Source: an uncultured Gammaproteobacteria bacterium
Lineage (GTDB): Bacteria > Patescibacteriota > Patescibacteriia > UBA11705 > JABHMO01
NCBI GenBank assembly: GCA_964590105.1
Contig: CAZPYM010000002.1
Coordinates: forward strand, 90,697-154,696
Direction of reading: 5' to 3'
DNA: 64,000 nucleotides
The translations under genes were made by a program, and so were the position numbers. How positions within the stretch are numbered: position 1 is the stretch's first letter; each line of letters starts with the position of its first letter. The notes under the pieces are model-generated. The model was not told the DNA's origin. It saw only the letters and a program-made list of their open reading frames with translations, and searched no databases. Positions 1 to 9,038 of this stretch are shown in pieces.

Positions 1-218
1 GGCCGAGAAATCATCTGCACGGTAGTAAGAGTCAAACCAAAGTCCGCCAAAATTCCAAAAAACTGCAAAAAGGCCGTAACCGTAATATAGTAACCAAAAC
101 CTTCTTTGCCCAAATAGCGCGTCATCATGGCCACTGCCACTAAACTCAAAATTAAACTGATAAATTTACCGGTCAAATGAATAATCGTGTTATGAGCGAT
201 TTTTTTATTCAAAGTCAT
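1..218 (-). CDS. Polysaccharide biosynthesis/oligosaccharide flippase-like protein (MOP superfamily), N-terminal 72 aa only; gene runs off the window start
   Basis: Manual minus-strand translation from ATG at 218..216 gives MTLNKKIAHNTIIHLTGKFISLILSLVAVAMMTRYLGKEGFGYYITVTAFLQFFGILADFGLT. This is a typical Wzx/RfbX-type N-terminus (TM helix plus conserved GxxGFG region). Not in the ORF track because it is truncated by the window edge. Confidence 0.45.
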   Translation of the reverse strand, partial: MTLNKKIAHNTIIHLTGKFISLILSLVAVAMMTRYLGKEGFGYYITVTAFLQFFGILADFGLTLTTVQMISR

Positions 219-460
219 ATTTCATTAATCATTAAACATGGGACATTATTCATAGAGAGTAGGGCTACCCTTCTTTTCTAATCTTGTGTAGGAGGGATTC
301 CCGAATCCCGCCGCCCTTTTCCACGTTCTCCATTCCATGTTCCGTGTTATGTATTATGTTTCCCGTATTCCTCATTCACTACAATTCTATCACCAAATTA
401 TTGTTACAGCAAAGATATTTTTTGTTTTTCCGCTAAAATTAAGCGCAAACAATTTAACCC

Positions 461-488
461 TTGACAAATAATAGATATCTGCTAAACT
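461..488 (+). promoter_or_regulatory. Candidate sigma70-type promoter (TTGACA, 16-nt spacer, TAAACT) in the AT-rich DNA just upstream of the GC-rich nfeD-flotillin cassette
   Basis: ttgacaaataatagatatctgctaaact read directly. It is followed by the RBS aaaggagg (530-537) and ATG at 542. Confidence 0.3.
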
Positions 489-541
489 ATTCCATTCTGC
501 AATTACGCAGAATTGGGCTCATTGAAAACAAAGGAGGCACT

Positions 542-1174
542 ATGGAAACATGGTGGGTCGCGCTCAGCGGTTCTGAACAGTTTTTCTGGGTAATTGCCAT
601 CATTTCCACAATCTTTTTGCTCTGCCAGTTTGTCATGCTCCTCGTCGGTCTGGATGACCAGCACGATGGGAGCACTGACACTGACGCAGATTTTGACGGA
701 CACGTTGATGGCCACGATCATGACTCTGATTCTGATCATGACCATGACGCCGGCCATCACGGCCTGGCACTCAAGAGTTTCTTTTCCATTCGCAGTTTGG
801 TGGCTTTTTTTCTCGGATTTTCATGGGGGGGACTTGGTTGTTTGGAATCAGGACTGTCACTTTCAGCGGCAGTCGCTATCAGTATCGTTATCGGAATTGT
901 GATGGCCAGTGTGGTTTTGCTGATTTTCCGGGCCCTTGTAGGCCTCCGGAGCAACGGCACGCTATCTGTCAAAAATGCGATCGGCCAGAAGGGCGTTGTG
1001 CTCATCCTGGTCCCGGCTAATAAAAACGGTTACGGAAAAGTGCATGTCACGGTCCAGGGGCGACTCTGCGACCTGACGGCGGTGACGGACGGCGACATCA
1101 GTCTGCCGAGAGGAACCTCCATCACTGTGAAAGACGTGAAAGGCGATTCTCTCGTAGTTGTCAAGGATCAGTAA
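542..1174 (+). CDS. NfeD-like membrane protein (membrane helices plus C-terminal OB-fold NfeD domain), the partner of the flotillin gene; carries an unusual Asp/His-rich insert
   Basis: RBS aaaggagg sits 5 nt before ATG 542 (the ORF-track start at 461 lacks an RBS). Hydrophobic helices, then the C-terminal segment GVVLILVPANKNGYGKVHVTVQGRLCDLTAVTDGDISLPRGTSITVKDVKGDSLVV, typical of the NfeD short-form beta-barrel. Sits immediately upstream of a flotillin gene, as in yuaF-floT type operons. Strongly G+C-rich codon usage. Confidence 0.7.
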   Translation: METWWVALSGSEQFFWVIAIISTIFLLCQFVMLLVGLDDQHDGSTDTDADFDGHVDGHDHDSDSDHDHDAGHHGLALKSFFSIRSLVAFFLGFSWGGLGCLESGLSLSAAVAISIVIGIVMASVVLLIFRALVGLRSNGTLSVKNAIGQKGVVLILVPANKNGYGKVHVTVQGRLCDLTAVTDGDISLPRGTSITVKDVKGDSLVVVKDQ

Positions 1175-1206
1175 CCACCACACAACAACCCAAGAAGGAG
1201 GCTATC

Positions 1207-2907
1207 ATGGTGGCAGGAATCTCAATGTGGGTGATCCTGAGCGCGATTTTCGGGCTCATGGTCTTCATTCTTCTCATCTCGGCGGCGGCGCGCTACAAGC
1301 GCTGTCCGTCCAACAAAATCCTGGTCAAGTACGGCAAGGTCGGCAAGGACAAGTCCGCCGAGTGCATCCATGGCGGCGCCACCTTTGTGTGGCCGCTACT
1401 CCAGTCGTACGAGTATCTTGACCTCATCCCCATGACCATCGAGGTCAGCCTGAAGAGCGCGCTGTCCAAGCAGAACATCAGGATCAACGTGCCTTCCAGA
1501 TTCACCATCGGCGTATCCACCGAACCGCATGTCATGCAGTCGGCTGCAGAGCGCTTGCTCGGCCTGAGCCTCAAGGAAATCGAAACCCGGGCAGAGGACA
1601 TCATCCTCGGCCAGCTTCGCGCCACGATCGCCACGATGAAGATCGAGGAGATCAACAGCGACCGAGAGGGCTTCGAGAAGAAAGTCCAGGACAACGTCGA
1701 ATCCGAGCTGAACAAGATCGGCCTCAAGCTGATCAACGTGAACATCACGGACATCACTGACGAGTCCGGGTACATCGAGGCGCTCGGCAAGCAGGCCGCG
1801 GCCGAAGCCATCAACAACGCCAAAGTGCAGGTCGCCGAGCAGGACAAGGCTGGCGCCAGTGGAGAGGCAGAGGCTCGCAAGGACCAGACCATCAACGTCA
1901 CCGGCGCGGACCGGGAAGGCGCGGTGGTCAGAGCCCAAAACGAAGCCAAGATCTCCGAGGCGGACAAGGAACGCGACGTCAAGCGCGCCCAGTACACCGC
2001 GGAAACCCAGGCCGAAGAAGCCCGCCGCGACCAGGCCAAGCCGAAGGCAGACGCCGTGGCTCGGCAGGCGGTCGTGGTCGAGGAAGTCAAGGTCGAGGAA
2101 CGTCGCCAGCAGGCGCTGGTGGCGGTGAAGGAACGGGAGATCGAAGTAGCCGAGAAATCCCAGCAGGCTACGGTCGTCGTACCGGCGCTGAAGCTGGCAG
2201 ACGCGGCCGAAGCCAAGGCGGACGGCGATCGCCGAGCGGCGGTGAAGACCGCCGAAGGCCAGAAGCAATCGCAGATCCTCGCCGCGGAAGCTGAGAAGCA
2301 GAAGCGGGAACTCGAGGGTCAGGGCGAAGCGGCCCAGATCAAGGCGGTCGGGCTGGCCGAAGCGGCCAGAGTGCAGGCAATCGGCGAAGCCGAGGGCGCG
2401 GCCATCAAAGCCAAGCTCCTGGCCGAGGCCGAAGGTGTACTCAAGAAGGCAGAGGCCTATGCCAAGCTTGACAAAGCCGGAGCACTGCAGATGGTCCTGG
2501 AGAAGTTGCCCGAAATCATCGGCGCACTCGCGCCGGTCATGGCGGCAATCGCCAAGCCCATGGAGGCCATCGACAAGGTGGTAGTCATCGAACAGGGCAA
2601 CGGCGGCGGCGGCTCCGGACAGACCGGGGTATCCCGTTTCACCGGCAATGTGCCGGGAATCCTCTTCTCCTTCCTCCAGAAGGCAGGGGAAATGGGCATC
2701 GACGTCGGTCCCATGCTGAAGAAGGTCGGCATCGATGTCGAGGATCTGTTCAAGGCCGAGGCTCACAAGCCGACCGCCGAGGAACACGTCGACCAGCCGG
2801 CAGTTGAGGCGGCGCCCCCGGCCGCGGAAGCGACCAAGGGGACTCCGCCGGCCATTCCGGCAGATGCCAAACAGGGTGACAAGCACCCGCCCAAGGACGG
2901 CAAGTAA
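1207..2907 (+). CDS. floT: Flotillin-like SPFH/band-7 family protein (FloT/YqiK type) with long Ala/Glu/Lys/Gln-rich coiled-coil region
   Basis: RBS aaggagg at 1194-1200 and ATG at 1207. N-terminal TM helix, SPFH domain and extended EA-rich heptad region (AEQDKAGASGEAEARKDQ... AEAEKQKRELEGQGEAAQIKAVGLAEAARVQAIGEAEGAAIKAKLLAEAEG), characteristic of bacterial flotillins. The antisense ORFs 1293-2216 and 1396-2886 are GC-rich artefacts. Confidence 0.85.
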   Translation: MVAGISMWVILSAIFGLMVFILLISAAARYKRCPSNKILVKYGKVGKDKSAECIHGGATFVWPLLQSYEYLDLIPMTIEVSLKSALSKQNIRINVPSRFTIGVSTEPHVMQSAAERLLGLSLKEIETRAEDIILGQLRATIATMKIEEINSDREGFEKKVQDNVESELNKIGLKLINVNITDITDESGYIEALGKQAAAEAINNAKVQVAEQDKAGASGEAEARKDQTINVTGADREGAVVRAQNEAKISEADKERDVKRAQYTAETQAEEARRDQAKPKADAVARQAVVVEEVKVEERRQQALVAVKEREIEVAEKSQQATVVVPALKLADAAEAKADGDRRAAVKTAEGQKQSQILAAEAEKQKRELEGQGEAAQIKAVGLAEAARVQAIGEAEGAAIKAKLLAEAEGVLKKAEAYAKLDKAGALQMVLEKLPEIIGALAPVMAAIAKPMEAIDKVVVIEQGNGGGGSGQTGVSRFTGNVPGILFSFLQKAGEMGIDVGPMLKKVGIDVEDLFKAEAHKPTAEEHVDQPAVEAAPPAAEATKGTPPAIPADAKQGDKHPPKDGK

Positions 2908-2924
2908 GCGTCCATTGTAATCGA

Positions 2925-2965
2925 TCTCCCGTTACCACCAAGTTGGTATCGGGAGTTTTTTTTGA
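2925..2965 (+). terminator. Rho-independent terminator after the flotillin gene
   Basis: ctcccgttaccaccaagttggtatcgggag followed by tttttttt. Confidence 0.6.
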
Positions 2966-3040
2966 CCGCTTATTGACAATTACTAAATTTACCGTCATAC
3001 TTGGACGAAACAACTGTCCTTTTAAATGGAGGTCTCAATC

Positions 3041-3292
3041 ATGCAATTCGTCTGGTGGAACATCGCGATTGCTTGGGCAATCATTTTTGCAATTTTCTTT
3101 GTAATCCTCAAAATCAAAGCATCCAAGAATCCTACCATCTCCGCTCTTACTTCGTCCGTAATGTCGATTGCAGCTTGCCTTGTTTTTCTCTGTACTCTCC
3201 ATTGGATATGCACTCATATCCTTGTAATTTCGATTGTTGCGTTCTCTGTTGCGGTTCTGACAGTAATATTCCTGCGGTTAAAAAACCAATAA
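3041..3292 (+). CDS. Small hydrophobic membrane protein, hypothetical (83 aa)
   Basis: RBS ggagg 8 nt upstream of ATG 3041. Product MQFVWWNIAIAWAIIFAIFFVILKIK... has two or three TM helices. No recognisable family. Confidence 0.45.
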   Translation: MQFVWWNIAIAWAIIFAIFFVILKIKASKNPTISALTSSVMSIAACLVFLCTLHWICTHILVISIVAFSVAVLTVIFLRLKNQ

Positions 3293-3297
3293 ACGTC

Positions 3298-3330
3298 AAA
3301 ACCAGCCCCTTACCGAGCTGGTTTTTTTAT
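3298..3330 (+). terminator. Rho-independent terminator
   Basis: aaaccagcccct taccga gctggttttttt hairpin plus T-run. Confidence 0.5.
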
Positions 3331-3485
3331 TCTTGAACTCTAATCTTTTATTTTTATTCTTCTCCCTACACTCCGCGCCCCACGTTATGCGTTATATATG
3401 GAAATTGAGATGTAACCACGCTCCTCGCAAAAAAAAGGGGTGGTAGACCTGTAAATTTTAGATTTTTAGTTTCAAATTTCCTTTT

Positions 3486-3550
3486 GCGCCAGAGGCGCAT
3501 CCACCTTTGGCGGAGGATTTTGTCCCGCCATGGCGGGATGGGCTTTGGGC
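3486..3550. repeat. GC-rich palindromic intergenic repeat element, copy 1 (two inverted units)
   Basis: gcgccagaggcgcatccacctttggcggagg / attttgtcccgccatggcgggatgggctttgggc. Matches 11263-11298 and 20137-20187; see findings. Confidence 0.45.
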
Positions 3551-3551
3551 T

Positions 3552-3815
3552 TTATTTCACTGGATCATTCCCACCTTTTGAAAACGGGTTACATCGCAAA
3601 ACACGCCAAATCGCCTTAGAGCCGCCCTTGAATACGCCATACTTTTCAACAGCTTCATAACCATACTGCGAACAAGTCGGATGAAACCGGCAATAACCAC
3701 CCGGAAACATATGTTTCAGCGGACCATGGTCAAAAGACAAAGTGTTCTGATATATTCTAATCATTTTAAGCAAAACAATCCGAGGATAATATTTAAATAT
3801 TGAGATCTTCGTCAT
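3552..3815 (-). CDS. yidD: Membrane protein insertion efficiency factor YidD
   Basis: ...[70 protein letters not shown] matches the YidD signature (IRxYQ, CRFxPTCSxY, RCHPxxxGGxDPV). Start placed at the MTKISIF Met (cat at 3813-3815), which gives the usual N-terminal length. Immediately downstream of rnpA. Confidence 0.85.
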
Positions 3816-3849
3816 AAAATAAAAAGTGGGGGGGGAAAGGTGACACCAA

Positions 3850-4206
3850 TTATAACAGGCCAACTTGTTTAAGTAAATAAATCAGTTCTTTTTCGATGAC
3901 TAAATATTCTTTGTCTTTAATTGCCGACTTAACAATAATCAAACAATCATTTTTGATTTTTAATTTATCTAATTTAAGTCTGATTATTTCGCGCAACTGC
4001 CTTTTGATTTTATTCCTACCGGTAGCTCGCTTGTCAATTTTATTACTAATAATAAACCCAAACCGCGGATTATCAATTCCATTATTAAAACACTTGACAA
4101 TCAAAAGCTGCCCGGCCGTATTTCTACCTTTCTTTTGCTTGAATTCCCGACCAAAAAAAGCATCAAATTCTTTTTGTTTGGTAATTCTATTTTTTTTGTC
4201 CAACAT
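3850..4206 (-). CDS. rnpA: Ribonuclease P protein component
   Basis: Basic 118-aa protein with the RnpA motif region ([26 protein letters not shown]). Lies in the canonical rpmH-rnpA-yidD arrangement next to dnaA. Confidence 0.85.
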
Positions 4207-4311
4207 ATATTATATAGGTAATGCAACGAACGCTTCCCGTTTCCTATGTTAAAACAAAAAGCTTCACCTTTTCAAGTGTAGCTTTTTTGCATGAAAAAAT
4301 CCAGGTTAGTT

Positions 4312-4458
4312 TTATCGATCTGAAGAAGTTAGACTCTTCCTGGCGCGCTGTCTTCGCCTTTTCAATATTTTCCTTCCGTCTTTAGATTTCATCCTGCTCC
4401 TAAAACCGTGCTTTTTTAGCTTTTTTCTGGTATTTGGCTGGAATGTTCTTTTGGGCAT
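4312..4458 (-). CDS. rpmH: 50S ribosomal protein L34
   Basis: Not in the ORF track (48 aa). Manual minus-strand translation from ATG (cat 4456-4458) gives [48 protein letters not shown] with stop TAA at 4312-4314. This is an unmistakable L34 sequence (MKRTxQPSxxKRxRxHGFRxRMxTxxGRxVLxRRRxKGRKxLT). Confidence 0.88.
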
Positions 4459-4772
4459 ATACTAGGTTAGATGATTAAAAGAAAAAACTAAGAAATTAAT
4501 AAATTAAGAAAACAAGAAAAAAGGACCTTCTAATAAACTTAGCTTTGAAAAGTATAGCTCAAAATTAAATGTCTGTCAATGATTTTTTCTCTTGCAATTT
4601 TTTAGATAGTAATATAAAATTTTTACAAGAACTAACTTATCAACAGATTACTAACAGTTTAGACGCCTTTGGGGACATTTCAACAGCTTGTCCACATCTG
4701 CTTGCAGTGCTAAAATACAATCGTTAACAAGAATCTCGCTTCAGCAGGCTAACAAAAATAAAAATCCTTACT

Positions 4773-6152
4773 ATGGAAGATCAAAATCTACAACTTTGGC
4801 AAGCAGTGCTGGGCGAACTCGAGCTAACGCTGAGTAAGGCAAGCTTTACCACTTGGCTGAAAAATACTTTTATTATTGAAAATGAAGACGGCCGGATTGT
4901 TATCGGCGTGCCGAATACTTTTTCCCAAGCCTGGCTAAAACAAAAATATCATCAGAAAATTTACAACCTAATACAATCAAAAACCAAAGACCGAATTAAA
5001 GAAATCCACTATAAAGTCCAAAGCGTAAAAAATTATCAGGAAGAAATTAAAACACTGAAAAAACAAATTGTTGAAACAGCTCAAAATCAAGTAATACCCA
5101 CCAACCCTTCTTCCCCGACAAAAGTTCTGGGGCTCAATCCCAAGTATATATTTAACAATTTTATTGTTGGTAAAGGCAATGAACTGGCGCACGCCGCTTC
5201 CATTGCCGTGTCAGAACGACCGGGATTAACTTATAATCCTCTTTTTATTTACGGCGGCGTTGGTCTCGGAAAAACTCACTTATTGCATGCCGTTGGCAAT
5301 ACTATTTCTGCAAAAGATCCGAGTAAAAAAATTCTTTACGTTACTTGTGAGCAATTTACAAATGATTTCATAAGCGCCATCTCTTCCGGCCGAGCGGAAA
5401 AATTTAATATTGCCTACCGCACAGTGGATGTCCTCCTGATCGACGATATTCAATTTCTAACCGGCAAAGAAGGAACACAGGAAGCGTTTTTTCATACTTT
5501 TAATGACCTTCACCAGCGGGACAAACAAATTGTTTTGACTTCCGACCGACCGCCAAAAGCGATCGCCACGCTGGAAGACCGGCTTCTCTCAAGGTTTGAA
5601 TGGGGGATGATCGCTGATATTTCTCAGCCTGATCTTGAGACCAGAATTGCCATTTTAGAAGCAAAATGCCAGGAAAAAGAATTTGAATTGGAACGGGACA
5701 TCATTCAATATATTACCCTGAATATTCAAAACAACATTCGGGAGCTCGAAGGCGCTCTAAATAAAATAATAGCTTATCATCAACTGAACAAAATCACTCC
5801 CACCCTTGAAAACGTTAAAAAGATACTTTTTTCCATTTCCACTTCCAGCAAAAAAACCGGCGCTGTGTCCGCTCGTCAGCTGATTGAACTGGTTTGCGAT
5901 TTTTATGATTTGACAATTGACGATATGCTCGGCAAGAGCCGGGAAAAAAGACTGGCTTTCCCTCGCCAAATCATTATGTTTCTTCTTCGGGAAGAACTTC
6001 AATGCTCTTATCCAATGATTGGCAATGAACTCGGCGGCCGTGACCACACCACGGCTATGCACGCCCACGAAAAAATTTCCAGAGTCATGGAGTCGGATGA
6101 AAAAACCAGGCAGGAAATAAATTTAATCAAGCAAAGAGTTTACGCGCACTGA
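4773..6152 (+). CDS. dnaA: Chromosomal replication initiator protein DnaA
   Basis: AAA+ Walker A GGVGLGKTHLLHAVG, sensor/box VII region and C-terminal DNA-binding domain (FPRQIIMFLLREELQCSYPMIGNELGGRDHTTAMHAHEKI). Flanked by rnpA/rpmH and dnaN. Confidence 0.97.
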   Translation: MEDQNLQLWQAVLGELELTLSKASFTTWLKNTFIIENEDGRIVIGVPNTFSQAWLKQKYHQKIYNLIQSKTKDRIKEIHYKVQSVKNYQEEIKTLKKQIVETAQNQVIPTNPSSPTKVLGLNPKYIFNNFIVGKGNELAHAASIAVSERPGLTYNPLFIYGGVGLGKTHLLHAVGNTISAKDPSKKILYVTCEQFTNDFISAISSGRAEKFNIAYRTVDVLLIDDIQFLTGKEGTQEAFFHTFNDLHQRDKQIVLTSDRPPKAIATLEDRLLSRFEWGMIADISQPDLETRIAILEAKCQEKEFELERDIIQYITLNIQNNIRELEGALNKIIAYHQLNKITPTLENVKKILFSISTSSKKTGAVSARQLIELVCDFYDLTIDDMLGKSREKRLAFPRQIIMFLLREELQCSYPMIGNELGGRDHTTAMHAHEKISRVMESDEKTRQEINLIKQRVYAH

Positions 6153-6457
6153 TATCCTGTGGAAAACTCCCCGGTTTCAAGGGATAAAATAAGTGGATAA
6201 AAACAAGTCCAATCTGTTCATAAATATCTACCTCGCGGTTTTCCTTCAATAGTCTGTTTTTGTCCCCTGCTCTGATACAGGCATATCAACAATTCATCCA
6301 TAGACCTGTTTGCATAAAATTAAATTAAACAAAGGCTTATCCACCGCTATCCACAGCATTATTATTATTATTATTTTTATATATATATAATTTCTTATAA
6401 TAAGAAGAAGAGCAAATCAATTAAATAGAAAAAAATAAGTCATAAAAAAACTGGGAT
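6153..6457. other. Putative oriC in the dnaA-dnaN spacer: DnaA boxes plus AT-rich unwinding element
   Basis: agtggataa at 6192-6200 (reverse complement TTATCCACT). ttatccacc at 6338-6346 and ctatccaca at 6347-6355. Followed by the pure A/T tract attattattattatttttatatatatataatttcttataataa (about 6360-6410). An additional near-box ttgtccaca at 4688-4696 lies upstream of dnaA. Confidence 0.6.
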
Positions 6458-7585
6458 ATGAAATTAACTTGCTTGCAAGAAAATTTAAACTTCGGACTGC
6501 AGTCAACAGGACATTTGGTAAATAAAAATATTAATTTACCGATTCTTAGTAATGTACTTCTAGAAGCCAAGGAAGGAACCTTAAAACTCTCAAGCACGAA
6601 TCTTGAAATCGGCATCAGCTGTGTGGTTCGTTGCAAAGTTGAAACAGAAGGGTCTTTTACTGTTGACGCCAGGCTTTTGTCTGAATATATAAATTTATTG
6701 CCCAATGAACAAGTAAATATAAATTTAGCTAGTGATGATTTTTTGAAAGTAGCCTGTCGAAATTCAGAAACCAAAATAAAGGGCATCGTGGCGGATGACT
6801 TCCCTGTCATTCCAAAAATCGACAAGCAAAATCCGTATCGTGTAAAAATAGATGAATTTAAAAAAGCAATTTCGCAAGTAATTTTTACGGTCGCCTCATC
6901 AGAAAACAGACCGGAGATTAGTGGAGTATTGCTTAGTTTTAATAAGTTTAAGAAAAATGAATTATTTTTAGCTGGCACGGACAGCTACCGTTTGGCGGAA
7001 AAAAGTGTCGCCCTGGTTGAAGGTCAACAAGAGCAAGACGTGATAGTTCCACTAAAAACAATGCAGGAAGTTTTGCGAATATTGAATAATTTGAAAGATC
7101 AGGCCAATAATGTTGAACAGCTGGACATTTATATTTCAGAAAATCAAATTCTATTTAATTGCGATTCGATTGAATTAATTTCCCGACTGCTTGAAGGGCA
7201 GTATCCTGATTATAAACAAATAATTCCGCAAGAAACAAAAACCAAGATCATAACTTCGGTTGCCGAGCTAAGCAAAGCCATAAAAAAAGTGGCGTTATTT
7301 TCCAAAGCCGGAATTTTTGATATTAATTTAGTATTTGAAGCTCAAAAAGGACTGACAGTCAGCGCAGTGAATACTCAAGTCGGAGAAAGTAAAACTGATC
7401 TTGATGTAGAATTTACCGGCGAAACAAATGATACAACTTTGAACTTTCGATATTTATTGGACGGCTTGAATAATCTAGACTCAAGCGAAGTTGAAATTAG
7501 CCTAGTGGACAATAATCTCCCCTGTATTATGAAAGCAAAAGGAAAAGATGATTATTTGTATATTGTAATGCCGATTAAACAATGA
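6458..7585 (+). CDS. dnaN: DNA polymerase III beta subunit (sliding clamp)
   Basis: 375 aa with the three-domain beta-clamp pattern (MKLTCLQENLNFGLQ..., LLEAKEGTLKLSSTNLEIGI..., MPIK end). Directly downstream of dnaA. Confidence 0.95.
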   Translation: MKLTCLQENLNFGLQSTGHLVNKNINLPILSNVLLEAKEGTLKLSSTNLEIGISCVVRCKVETEGSFTVDARLLSEYINLLPNEQVNINLASDDFLKVACRNSETKIKGIVADDFPVIPKIDKQNPYRVKIDEFKKAISQVIFTVASSENRPEISGVLLSFNKFKKNELFLAGTDSYRLAEKSVALVEGQQEQDVIVPLKTMQEVLRILNNLKDQANNVEQLDIYISENQILFNCDSIELISRLLEGQYPDYKQIIPQETKTKIITSVAELSKAIKKVALFSKAGIFDINLVFEAQKGLTVSAVNTQVGESKTDLDVEFTGETNDTTLNFRYLLDGLNNLDSSEVEISLVDNNLPCIMKAKGKDDYLYIVMPIKQ

Positions 7586-7800
7586 CGCGGATTTAACTAA
7601 TTGCATGAGAATAATGTGGTAAGCGTTGACCAAGCATGTACACATATAATAATTAGAAAATAAAAAATACGCTTCTGATTTGGGGCGTGTTTTTGTCTAG
7701 CGCGGGGCGCTATCATGCCTTAGAGCATGATAGTGAAAACTAGGTAATATAGTTGACATTGCGATTATTTTTGATATATTATATCAAAGTTGATAATTAT

Positions 7801-7876
7801 GCGGGAGTAGCTTAGTTGGTAGAGCGCAACCTTGCCAAGGTTGAGGTCGCGGGTTCGAGTCCCGTCTCCCGCTCCA
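7801..7876 (+). tRNA. tRNA-Gly (anticodon GCC)
   Basis: gcgggagtagcttagttggtagagcgcaaccttGCCaaggttgaggtcgcgggttcgagtcccgtctcccgctcca. Cloverleaf folds by hand; CCA is encoded. Confidence 0.9.
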
Positions 7877-7923
7877 GAAGTAGGGATAATTCATGAATTG
7901 TCCCTACTTCTGGAAATACGCTA

Positions 7924-8011
7924 GCCCCGGTGGCGGAATTGGTAGACGCGCAGGACTTAAAATCCTGTGGTTGTATAAACCGTGCCGGTTCGATTCCGGC
8001 CCGGGGCACCA
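7924..8011 (+). tRNA. tRNA-Leu (anticodon TAA), long variable arm
   Basis: gccccggtggcggaattggtagacgcgcaggacttaaaatcctg...ggttcgattccggcccggggcacca. Acceptor stem gccccgg/ccggggc; anticodon loop cTTAAaa. Confidence 0.85.
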
Positions 8012-8136
8012 CGGAGGAAAAGTCAAAGAGTTTTGGTTCGCCTTGCTTCGCTCGGCGACCAATTGGTATTCAATTTTGGGGGTAAAAACGAATTTACGAT
8101 TTCGCATTTTGGAGGAAGAAAAAAATTTTAATCCTT

Positions 8137-8712
8137 ATGGAACAAAAAGAAATATTAAATTTTGCCAAAAATTCAGAAACCGTTATTTCTGGTAGTTTTC
8201 GAAAGCACATGGAACAAATTGGCAAAGCATTGGACGGTTTTGGAAAAGCTAATGTAAAAGTTCTTGCGCCAACTACAAGAGAAGCCATTAACCAAGATGA
8301 AGATTTTATTATTCTTGCCACTGATGACCCTAGTAAACCGCCACACAAATTGGAAATGGATTTTATGCGAGAAATACGTAAGGCGGATTTTCTGTATGTA
8401 GCTGATGTTGATGGGTATGTCGGACAAAGTGTTGCGACCGAGATGGCATATGCTCGGCTCAAAAATTTACCTGTTGTCGTTGCTGAAGTAATAAAAACTT
8501 TTTCTAGTGAAATTTCCGAGGAAGCACAAGAACTTTTGAAAAAAACTGTTGCTGGGACTCTCGGAATCTCAGACATATCAAAAGAGAAAATAGTGGAACT
8601 CAAACAAAGTTTTTCAAGTTTAGACATGCCGAATTTAACAGAGGAAGAAACTAGAATTTTGCAAACGCTCATTAAGAAATTACTTAAAGATTTAAAATCT
8701 CTACAAAAATGA
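8137..8712 (+). CDS. Nucleoside 2-deoxyribosyltransferase-like protein (Rossmann-like NDT/YtoQ fold) with C-terminal coiled-coil extension
   Basis: Segment FLYVADVDGYVGQSVATEMAYARLKNLPVVV resembles the NDT family active-site region (G..E.GYA.A.GKPV). The C-terminal 70 aa are helical with no recognisable family. Stop overlaps the start of the MazG-like gene (ATGA). Confidence 0.45.
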   Translation: MEQKEILNFAKNSETVISGSFRKHMEQIGKALDGFGKANVKVLAPTTREAINQDEDFIILATDDPSKPPHKLEMDFMREIRKADFLYVADVDGYVGQSVATEMAYARLKNLPVVVAEVIKTFSSEISEEAQELLKKTVAGTLGISDISKEKIVELKQSFSSLDMPNLTEEETRILQTLIKKLLKDLKSLQK

Positions 8713-9038
8713 ATAAAAGTAATTTGATTCTTAAAAACAACCCAACCCTCCGCGATTTTCAGGATTACATTGCTGTAATGGTAAAAGAGCGGGGGTTTGA
8801 TAAGGAAAGTATTTCTGAAATTTTTATGTTGTTTCTTGAAGAATGCGGAGAGATGGCCAAGGCCGCGCGAAAAATTCAAAACATAAAATCTGATAAAAAC
8901 TCCGAGCAATTTCATCTTGACTATGAAATTGCCGATGTGTTCATTTATTTGTTGGATATTTGTAATCATTACAATATTGATTTAGAAAAATCTTTTCGGG
9001 ATAAAGAAGAAGTTAACAAGAAAAGATTTTGGGAATAA
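8709..9038 (+). CDS. MazG-like nucleotide pyrophosphohydrolase (all-alpha NTP-PPase)
   Basis: LEECGEMAKAARK ... YEIADVFIYLLDICNHYNIDLEKSF matches the MazG-domain EExxE/D metal-binding and ADVxxYL motifs. Confidence 0.65.
   Translation: MNKSNLILKNNPTLRDFQDYIAVMVKERGFDKESISEIFMLFLEECGEMAKAARKIQNIKSDKNSEQFHLDYEIADVFIYLLDICNHYNIDLEKSFRDKEEVNKKRFWE

Follow-up and report, generated by a model that had tools for sequence, protein, structure and literature searches.

The lateral transfer of gene pairs encoding an SPFH protein and an NfeD protein has been described as frequent (Hinderhofer et al. 2009, PMC2636767). In Bacillus subtilis (yuaF-floT, with floT also named yuaG) and in Escherichia coli (yqiJ-yqiK), a short membrane NfeD protein is encoded upstream of a flotillin of ~500-560 amino acids (aa) (PMC2636767). 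The same layout is found in the operon described here, which consists of the genes nfeD and flot and lies near the beginning of a 64,000-nucleotide (nt) stretch of contig CAZPYM010000002.1 (assembly GCA_964590105.1). The whole stretch is referred to as the window. We hold with high confidence that this pair is a real and foreign NfeD-flotillin operon that occupies a variable slot in the genome of a member of the Patescibacteria, or candidate phyla radiation (CPR).

The window pair differs from yuaF-floT and yqiJ-yqiK in several respects. Flot is not a FloT equivalog (228 bits against 700), NfeD falls below the Pfam thresholds for NfeD and YqiJ, no yuaI-like third gene is present, and the host is an ultra-small Patescibacterium. 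The acidic loop and transmembrane (TM) layout of NfeD resemble those of YqiJ_N-type proteins. The pairs FloA-NfeD of Staphylococcus aureus (PMC11222466) and QmcA-YbbJ of E. coli (PDB 8z5g) belong to other SPFH sub-families (FloA and the stomatin-like QmcA). Among solved structures, the best match to Flot is the human flotillin-1/2 cage (PDB 9bq2, 9l3g; ~1e-32), with an alignment that extends across the SPFH domain into the beginning of the coiled coil. This cage is a eukaryotic hetero-oligomer lacking an NfeD partner, and the alignment takes in only about half of Flot.

Genomic islands and the xenologous displacement of genes in situ are established concepts. Like these, the window cassette is a compositional outlier, has a patchy distribution with empty sites, and sits at a locus where sister species carry analogous non-orthologous genes. 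Unlike genomic islands, it has no integrase, tRNA or direct repeats, comprises only two genes and has no identifiable close donor, and its co-transcribed genes are strongly unequal in their amelioration. In the Patescibacteria, genomic islands and horizontal gene transfer have been surveyed (PMC12455944). One paper was found that names flotillin as well as Patescibacteria, each a single time; its subject is cyanobacterial thylakoids. An earlier reading of the window made from its letters (the sequence-only reading) had called the acquisition unusual for membrane-microdomain scaffolding genes. That view does not stand, since lateral transfer of NfeD-SPFH pairs and Patescibacteria islands are both already known, and the window event is of an ordinary kind.

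The nfeD-flot operon

Comparison loci are designated L0xx, L1xx or L2xx, and P0003 and P0104 are flotillin relatives. The features of the operon are listed below; L005 is a comparison locus that is ~10% diverged from the window.

461-488, plus strand: putative sigma-70-like promoter, TTGACA-16-(TG)TAAACT, 10/12 consensus, with an extended -10 TG
531-537, plus strand: Shine-Dalgarno site AAGGAGG, 4 nt before ATG 542, read from the sequence and kept in L005
542-1174, plus strand: nfeD, a short NfeD-type (YuaF/YqiJ-like) membrane protein of 210 aa, start ATG 542
1195-1201, plus strand: Shine-Dalgarno site AAGGAGG, 5 nt before ATG 1207, read from the sequence
1207-2907, plus strand: flot, a flotillin (SPFH2 family) of 566 aa and a compositional outlier, start ATG 1207
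2926-2963, plus strand: intrinsic terminator, an 11-pair hairpin with one internal mismatch followed by T8 (minimum free energy -17.1 kcal/mol, z -2.8)

Flot is composed of an N-terminal anchor, an SPFH domain, an Ala/Glu-rich coiled coil with a Flot domain, and a Pro/Ala-rich tail. The Band_7/SPFH domain (PF01145, 1e-30, 107.5 bits, cut-off 23.6) covers residues 34-214, and the C-terminal Flot domain (PF15975, 2.8e-8, 34.3 bits, cut-off 27) covers residues 384-507. The hydrophobic membrane anchor, as read from the translation, spans residues 5-27 (ISMWVILSAIFGLMVFILLISAA). Against the FloT equivalog model NCBIfam NF058507, Flot scores 227.7 bits, far under the cut-off of 700, and is therefore a member of the flotillin family (SPFH2) and not a FloT ortholog.

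NfeD has three long predicted helices (residues 10-36, 83-102 and 107-138, predicted TM), a disordered Asp/His-rich loop at residues 39-75, and, by structural comparison, a C-terminal five-stranded OB-fold (the NfeD domain) at about residues 148-208. Its score against Pfam PF01957 is 16.6 bits, below the cut-off of 29.1, and no YqiJ match was found; its ortholog at the sister locus L004 scores 18.3 bits. A profile search of PDB sequences with the NfeD alignment returned noise only. The 210-aa protein has no protease match, and a ClpP-type domain is absent. The gene lies directly upstream of the SPFH gene, with a 32-nt gap from its stop codon to the start codon of flot. By its predicted membrane-embedded N-terminus, its OB-fold and this position, the product is a short NfeD (NfeD2) of the YuaF/YqiJ type. 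The sequence-only reading had recognized the gene order of yuaF-floT operons, which is upheld; yqiJ-yqiK has the same order.

The true start of nfeD is ATG 542, which is preceded by AAGGAGG, and not TTG 461 as in the list of open reading frames (ORFs); this TTG is part of the -35 hexamer of the promoter-like site. Both promoter hexamers are identical in L005 inside an otherwise variable spacer, and L004 has an analogous TTGACA-18-TAAAGT upstream of its nfeD. The terminator was missed by a simple hairpin scan because of its internal mismatch; a hairpin terminator occupies the corresponding place in L004. The promoter-like element and terminator that had been attributed to the cassette are thus both present, and the operon is probably transcribed from ~490 to 2963. 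A structured RNA or riboswitch was considered and dropped, because Rfam gave only two tRNAs and one sub-threshold small RNA match over window positions 1-9000. Antisense coding was also rejected: the minus strand has two long ORFs, 1396-2886 and 1293-2216, but neither matches a Pfam family, both are broken up in L004, and they are artefacts of GC composition.

Base composition and assembly integrity

The block from ~540 to ~2910 has a sliding GC content of 0.50-0.70, and the surrounding DNA has 0.30-0.45. The profile is ~0.38 at 401-600, rises to 0.58-0.70 over 1200-2900, and is 0.40 at 2901-3100, while the window minus the cassette has a GC content of 0.406. The G+C-rich block in AT-rich DNA that was first seen by eye is therefore real in composition. 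The two genes do not contribute equally to it. The flot ORF has a GC content of 0.627 and a GC content at third codon positions (GC3) of 0.813, and the nfeD ORF has 0.521 and 0.578. The other window ORFs of at least 120 aa have a GC3 of 0.25-0.61, centred near 0.41. The codons of nfeD are much like those of the host: all Glu codons are GAA, 73% of Phe codons are TTT and 63% of Lys codons are AAA. The claim that GCC/GGC/CGC/GAG-type codons dominate all of 542-2907 therefore holds for flot and applies only weakly to nfeD, in which two-fold codons are host-like.

The sharp composition steps at both ends of the block would also be produced by a chimera, in which the contig of a GC-rich organism was joined to a CPR contig, and the sequence-only reading had named this as its alternative. 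Such an artefact is next to impossible here. A 594-kb NCBI/JGI contig encodes the exact NfeD and Flot proteins, as do contigs of Logan SRR8437217 and of ENA ERZ27248895, ERZ27248939 and ERZ27248920. The four independent contigs from SRR8437217 and the three ENA assemblies, which come from different runs, were compared across one or both junctions and reproduce them; three are 100% identical to the window and the fourth is one base off. The left junction is also common to L005, and L004 has the same architecture.

Evidence for a foreign origin

Flotillin genes are not inherently high in GC3. At 73 other loci encoding related flotillins, including very AT-rich genomes (GC3 near 0.2), flot GC3 tracks flank GC3 (r 0.95, slope 1.07, difference +0.017, standard deviation 0.072). 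In the window, flot exceeds its flanks by ~+0.40, which is the largest deviation seen and about 5 standard deviations above the trend of the 73 loci. The codon usage of the window flot correlates at r 0.87 with that of a homologue from a metagenome-assembled genome (MAG) of 68% GC, and at r 0.11 with the window background.

The cassette is also patchily distributed. It is present within 10 kb of dnaA in none of 80 other Patescibacteria loci, with L004 as the sole bearer. The slot in which it sits, between a Polysacc_synt-family gene and yidD, is empty in the more remote relatives L009 (gap of 94 bp) and L013 (121 bp). In its deviant composition and codon usage and its patchy spread with empty sites, the cassette has the marks of a genomic island.

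A native gene whose GC-rich codons reflect selection for expression would be consistent with the strong Shine-Dalgarno sites and the near-consensus promoter. This explanation is very improbable, as the housekeeping and likely well-expressed genes of the window have a GC3 of only 0.32-0.48, native flotillin genes of AT-rich genomes match their flanks, and the cassette is missing from the 80 loci near dnaA and from the slot in L009 and L013.

A source of higher GC content, as had been proposed, is likely. The non-CPR members of the window flotillin sub-clade come only from contigs of 57-63% GC, and the nearest non-CPR NfeD (~46-47% identical) comes from a MAG of 68-70% GC that has the same gene pair. 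In the P0003 cluster, the flotillin genes of L087 and L223 have the composition of their neighbours. L223 carries FadL-type outer-membrane genes, and its lineage is therefore probably diderm and not CPR. In L224 (P0104), flot is somewhat higher in GC3 than the small genes downstream.

A plasmid or phage vector was considered as the source and rejected. The plasmid, phage and viral (IMG/VR) collections contain flotillin-family genes, none of them above ~45% over its full length. Among their carriers are a crAss-like phage and Vibrio phage KIT04 (records OR575929.1, LC487410.1) as well as 52 IMG/VR contigs (L171-L222). Separately, positions 2085-3661 of L224 hold five small ORFs downstream of the 629-aa P0104, one of them with a weak match to Lar, a restriction-alleviation protein. 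This context hints that the sub-family is able to ride on prophage-like DNA. Scans for repeats and tRNAs as mobile-element borders gave nothing convincing.

The slot in sister genomes

The slot lies between the following genes.

1-217, minus strand: left anchor, a flippase gene of the Polysacc_synt family, of which the window includes the first 72 codons (5' end); composition like that of the host (GC3 0.457)
3552-3863, minus strand: right anchor, yidD (from ORFs and Pfam labels on identical contigs)
3850-4206, 4315-4458 and 4773-6152: beyond yidD, rnpA, rpmH and dnaA, respectively (from ORFs and Pfam labels on identical contigs)

The full flippase gene is available on the overlapping contig L001 (tblastn, 100% identity at window positions 3-218), and Pfam Polysacc_synt matches this gene. 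The order yidD-rnpA-rpmH-dnaA is seen in 80 Patescibacteria loci.

In a tree of DnaA and DnaN, the window groups with L004 (97%) and these two with L007 and L008 (97%), and L009 is the next branch. L004 has 33% GC and a DnaA 81% identical to that of the window. It carries the same operon at the same Polysacc_synt/yidD site and in the same orientation, with Flot 58% and NfeD 41-43% identical to the window proteins. The GC3 of its flot is 0.39, that of the neighbours 0.15-0.26 and that of the partner 0.27-0.29; the L004 operon is mostly ameliorated.

The slot of L007 holds a gene for a 273-aa SPFH protein (3406-4227) with a GC3 of 0.75, flanks of 0.29-0.42 and its own terminator. In this sister species, too, a GC-rich SPFH gene has been imported, the second such case. 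The slot of L008 (3436-6241) holds genes for a 269-aa protein that resembles YqiJ_N and has a loop of HDID repeats, and for a 696-aa SPFH protein, followed by two paralogous genes (239 and 233 aa). These SPFH proteins are not orthologous: the window protein is 28% identical to that of L008 and 21% to that of L007, and the latter two have no significant match to each other. The slot has therefore most likely held SPFH modules since the ancestor of the four species, and these would have been exchanged in situ. The contents of the slot differ among L007, L008, L010, L014, L015 and L016.

Timing of the import

Four-fold degenerate sites are saturated between the window and L004 (identity 0.26-0.34), and a neutrally evolving GC3 of 0.81 therefore cannot predate their split. 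L005 has the cassette as well (flanks 90.7% identical in nucleotides, NfeD 87%, Flot N-terminus 96%, flot GC3 0.83), so that the import is older than the split of the window and L005. In a two-state amelioration model calibrated on the flank of this pair, the residence time of flot is at most 1.1-1.7 times the age of that split, and that of nfeD is ~5 times. Judged by composition, flot seems about five times younger than the gene transcribed with it. A partner-sized ORF lies directly upstream of flot in 74 of the related flotillin loci compared, where the difference in GC3 between flot and partner is +0.017 (standard deviation 0.064); in the window it is 0.235, or ~3.4 standard deviations off.

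The comparison with L005 covers 140 codons (420 nt) of flot. In this N-terminal part of flot, 13% of codons differ synonymously; for nfeD and for Polysacc_synt the share is 23-24% (Fisher p 0.01). GC<->AT differences in flot stand at 0.119, where 0.206 would be expected (p 0.006). The two sequences are 0.78-0.86 identical over the 3' half of nfeD and 0.90-0.97 identical in flot, but the 420 nt of flot do not allow a sharp recombination junction to be placed. L088 and L170 were tried as a second calibration pair and are, at 99% alike, too similar. L170 (9330-11425, the same as L088) is a different locus in another AT-rich genome (34.6% GC), in which flot has a GC3 of 0.52, its NfeD partner 0.29 and the neighbours 0.18-0.34.

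In neighbour-joining (NJ) trees of Flot, the GC-rich P0003/P0104 group joins the window and L004 in 86-98% of bootstraps, and an exclusive sisterhood of the window and L004 appears in ~10%. The NfeD tree has no resolution because NfeD evolves ~3 times faster than Flot.

The claim of a fairly recent acquisition oversimplifies. The window flot does look young, but L004 has the operon at the same site with a flot GC3 of 0.39, L007 and L008 carry other SPFH genes, and nfeD is much more host-like than flot.

History of the slot

The best explanation overall, which we regard as probable on balance, is a foreign operon combined with repeated replacement of SPFH modules in situ. An SPFH module would have entered the slot in the ancestor of the window, L004, L007 and L008, after the split from L009, where the site is empty. 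Non-orthologous SPFH modules would later have displaced the slot content in situ, with the NfeD-flotillin type carried by the branch of the window and L004. The current window flot allele would be an import or a re-import, its source being related to a lineage of 57-70% GC. It would have arrived after the split from L004 and shortly before the split from L005, and nfeD would have been resident for longer. For this particular sequence of steps, the chances are about even. A later import of flot than of nfeD is favoured over slow synonymous decay because of the turnover in L007 and L008 and because the NJ trees place the GC-rich group among the window and L004.

Several observations weigh against this history. 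Among 5.8 billion proteins, the best Flot homologues after L004 (58%) are non-CPR and only 46-48% identical, so that there is no close donor, which is odd for a gene that is compositionally young. The absence of any homologue closer than this outside this one CPR clade is awkward for re-import and slow decay alike. Hallmarks of mobility were not found: there is no integrase among the neighbouring genes, there are no meaningful flanking repeats, and the nearest tRNAs are at 7801-8011, with none adjacent to the cassette. All trees were built by NJ; the GC-rich group sits on a long branch, and its placement is close to a tie under Dayhoff recoding. Each of the two Flot proteins, that of the window and that of L004, is the best hit of the other, and the site, orientation and layout are held in common, a pattern that favours plain vertical descent. 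To our knowledge, no mechanism exists by which flot could be exchanged by itself at an amino-acid identity of 58%. Finally, flot is also higher in GC3 than its partner in L004 and in the unrelated L170, which hints at a slow decay intrinsic to the gene.

Some of these points are what would be expected from a single acquisition of the operon before the split of the window and L004, after which flot kept its donor codons through slow synonymous change, owing to constraint or a low local mutation rate, while nfeD ameliorated. This course of events, the chief rival to the preferred history, is possible, though doubtful. It accounts for the shared site and layout and the reciprocal best hits, for the lower synonymous divergence and the deficit of GC<->AT differences in flot relative to L005, and for the excess of flot GC3 over the partner in L004 (0.39 against 0.27-0.29) and L170 (0.52 against 0.29). 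A pure reduction in rate would be invisible in native genes and fits the flank trend of the 73 loci. However, the slowdown measured is ~0.58-fold, and roughly 0.2-fold is needed. Between the window and L004, neutral sites have reached full saturation, so that most of the signal ought to be gone even if change had been several-fold slower. Moreover, the diverged relative offers 140 codons only, no mechanism for slow decay is known, and NJ does not favour an exclusive sisterhood of the window and L004.

Alternatively, the lineages of the window and L004 may each have gained the whole NfeD-flotillin operon from related GC-rich donors at the same hotspot. The variable contents of the slot in L007, L008, L010, L014, L015 and L016 would agree with this, as would the nesting of the P0003/P0104 group among the window and L004 in the NJ trees and a window NfeD that is no nearer to L004 (41-43%) than to the MAG of 68% GC (46%). 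Two such gains are improbable, since the same rare sub-family would have to arrive twice at one site in sister species, and the far greater amelioration of nfeD than of flot in the window would be left unexplained; the NfeD tree, given its lack of resolution, lends no help. In comparison with both alternatives, replacement of SPFH modules in an acquired operon is retained as the preferred history.

Host and neighbouring features

Comparisons of DnaA, DnaN, YidD and RnpA put the window within the Falkowbacteria-type Patescibacteria, and the best species-representative matches to its DnaA are 67-80% identical. On its sequence, the host is a small (longest contig ~0.6 Mb), roughly 41% GC, Falkowbacteria-like Patescibacterium. 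Many MAG records among the species representatives of GTDB are titled 'uncultured Gammaproteobacteria bacterium' (binchicken series; L007, L009, L012, L013 and others). These are clearly Patescibacteria by DnaA identity and synteny, and the titles look mislabelled.

Near-consensus DnaA boxes are found at 6158-6355 (four, in the dnaA-dnaN spacer of 24.5% GC) and upstream of dnaA at 4637-4696 (two). The cumulative GC skew has its minimum at ~6-7 kb of the window, where the boxes cluster, and the cluster at 6158-6355 is probably oriC. This places the operon ~3.3 kb from the probable origin. The nfeD-flot operon and a small downstream gene, orf83, are head-on to the leftward fork, whereas the native neighbours are co-directional with it.

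3041-3292, plus strand: orf83, a small hydrophobic protein of 83 aa, GC 0.405, in the same variable gap

No Pfam or PADLOC match was found for orf83. It has its own promoter-like site (2973-3001) and hairpin (3298-3325), is missing from the sister locus L004, is not G+C-rich and probably lies outside the imported block. A defence-system reading of the locus was dropped, as the PADLOC models gave no match for NfeD, Flot, orf83 or the SPFH modules of L007 and L008.

Elsewhere in the window, positions 39685-44397 contain three large ORFs (344, 509 and 674 aa) with no Pfam match and moderately raised GC (0.47-0.52), adjoining an H+-pyrophosphatase gene at 44524-46545. This region may be another acquired block.

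Predicted role and significance

The pair would have a function of the SPFH2-NfeD2 type. The hydrophobic segment at the N-terminus would anchor Flot, and its coiled coil would drive oligomerisation into a scaffold or cage on the membrane. NfeD, embedded by its three helices, would dock to Flot through the OB-fold, and together the two proteins would confine or stabilise membrane proteins. This role is proposed by analogy with FloA-NfeD (PMC11222466) and QmcA-YbbJ (8z5g).

The turnover of SPFH genes in a slot beside oriC and the unequal amelioration of a co-transcribed pair are modestly interesting side results. The wider value of the locus lies in the comparison of four sister species with three non-orthologous SPFH modules in one slot beside oriC. 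As a small and manageable system, it also allows amelioration-based dating to be tested and the donors, possibly the hosts, of CPR bacteria to be traced. A much more tentative proposal, which we rate as rather unlikely, is that the oriC-side slot in one clade of Falkowbacteria-like episymbionts is a site of SPFH turnover repeatedly re-supplied by GC-rich, possibly host, bacteria, or else that the synonymous evolution of flotillin genes is intrinsically slow and keeps donor codons in place well after the operon partner has ameliorated. If either were true, the locus would be a natural clock or tracer of gene flow from host to symbiont in the CPR.

CPR bacteria are thought to rely on other cells for their lipids. 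The window provides a clean, assembly-proof case in which a reduced Patescibacteria genome has acquired a module for organising membranes, and an imported flotillin scaffold bears on how CPR bacteria organise their borrowed membrane.

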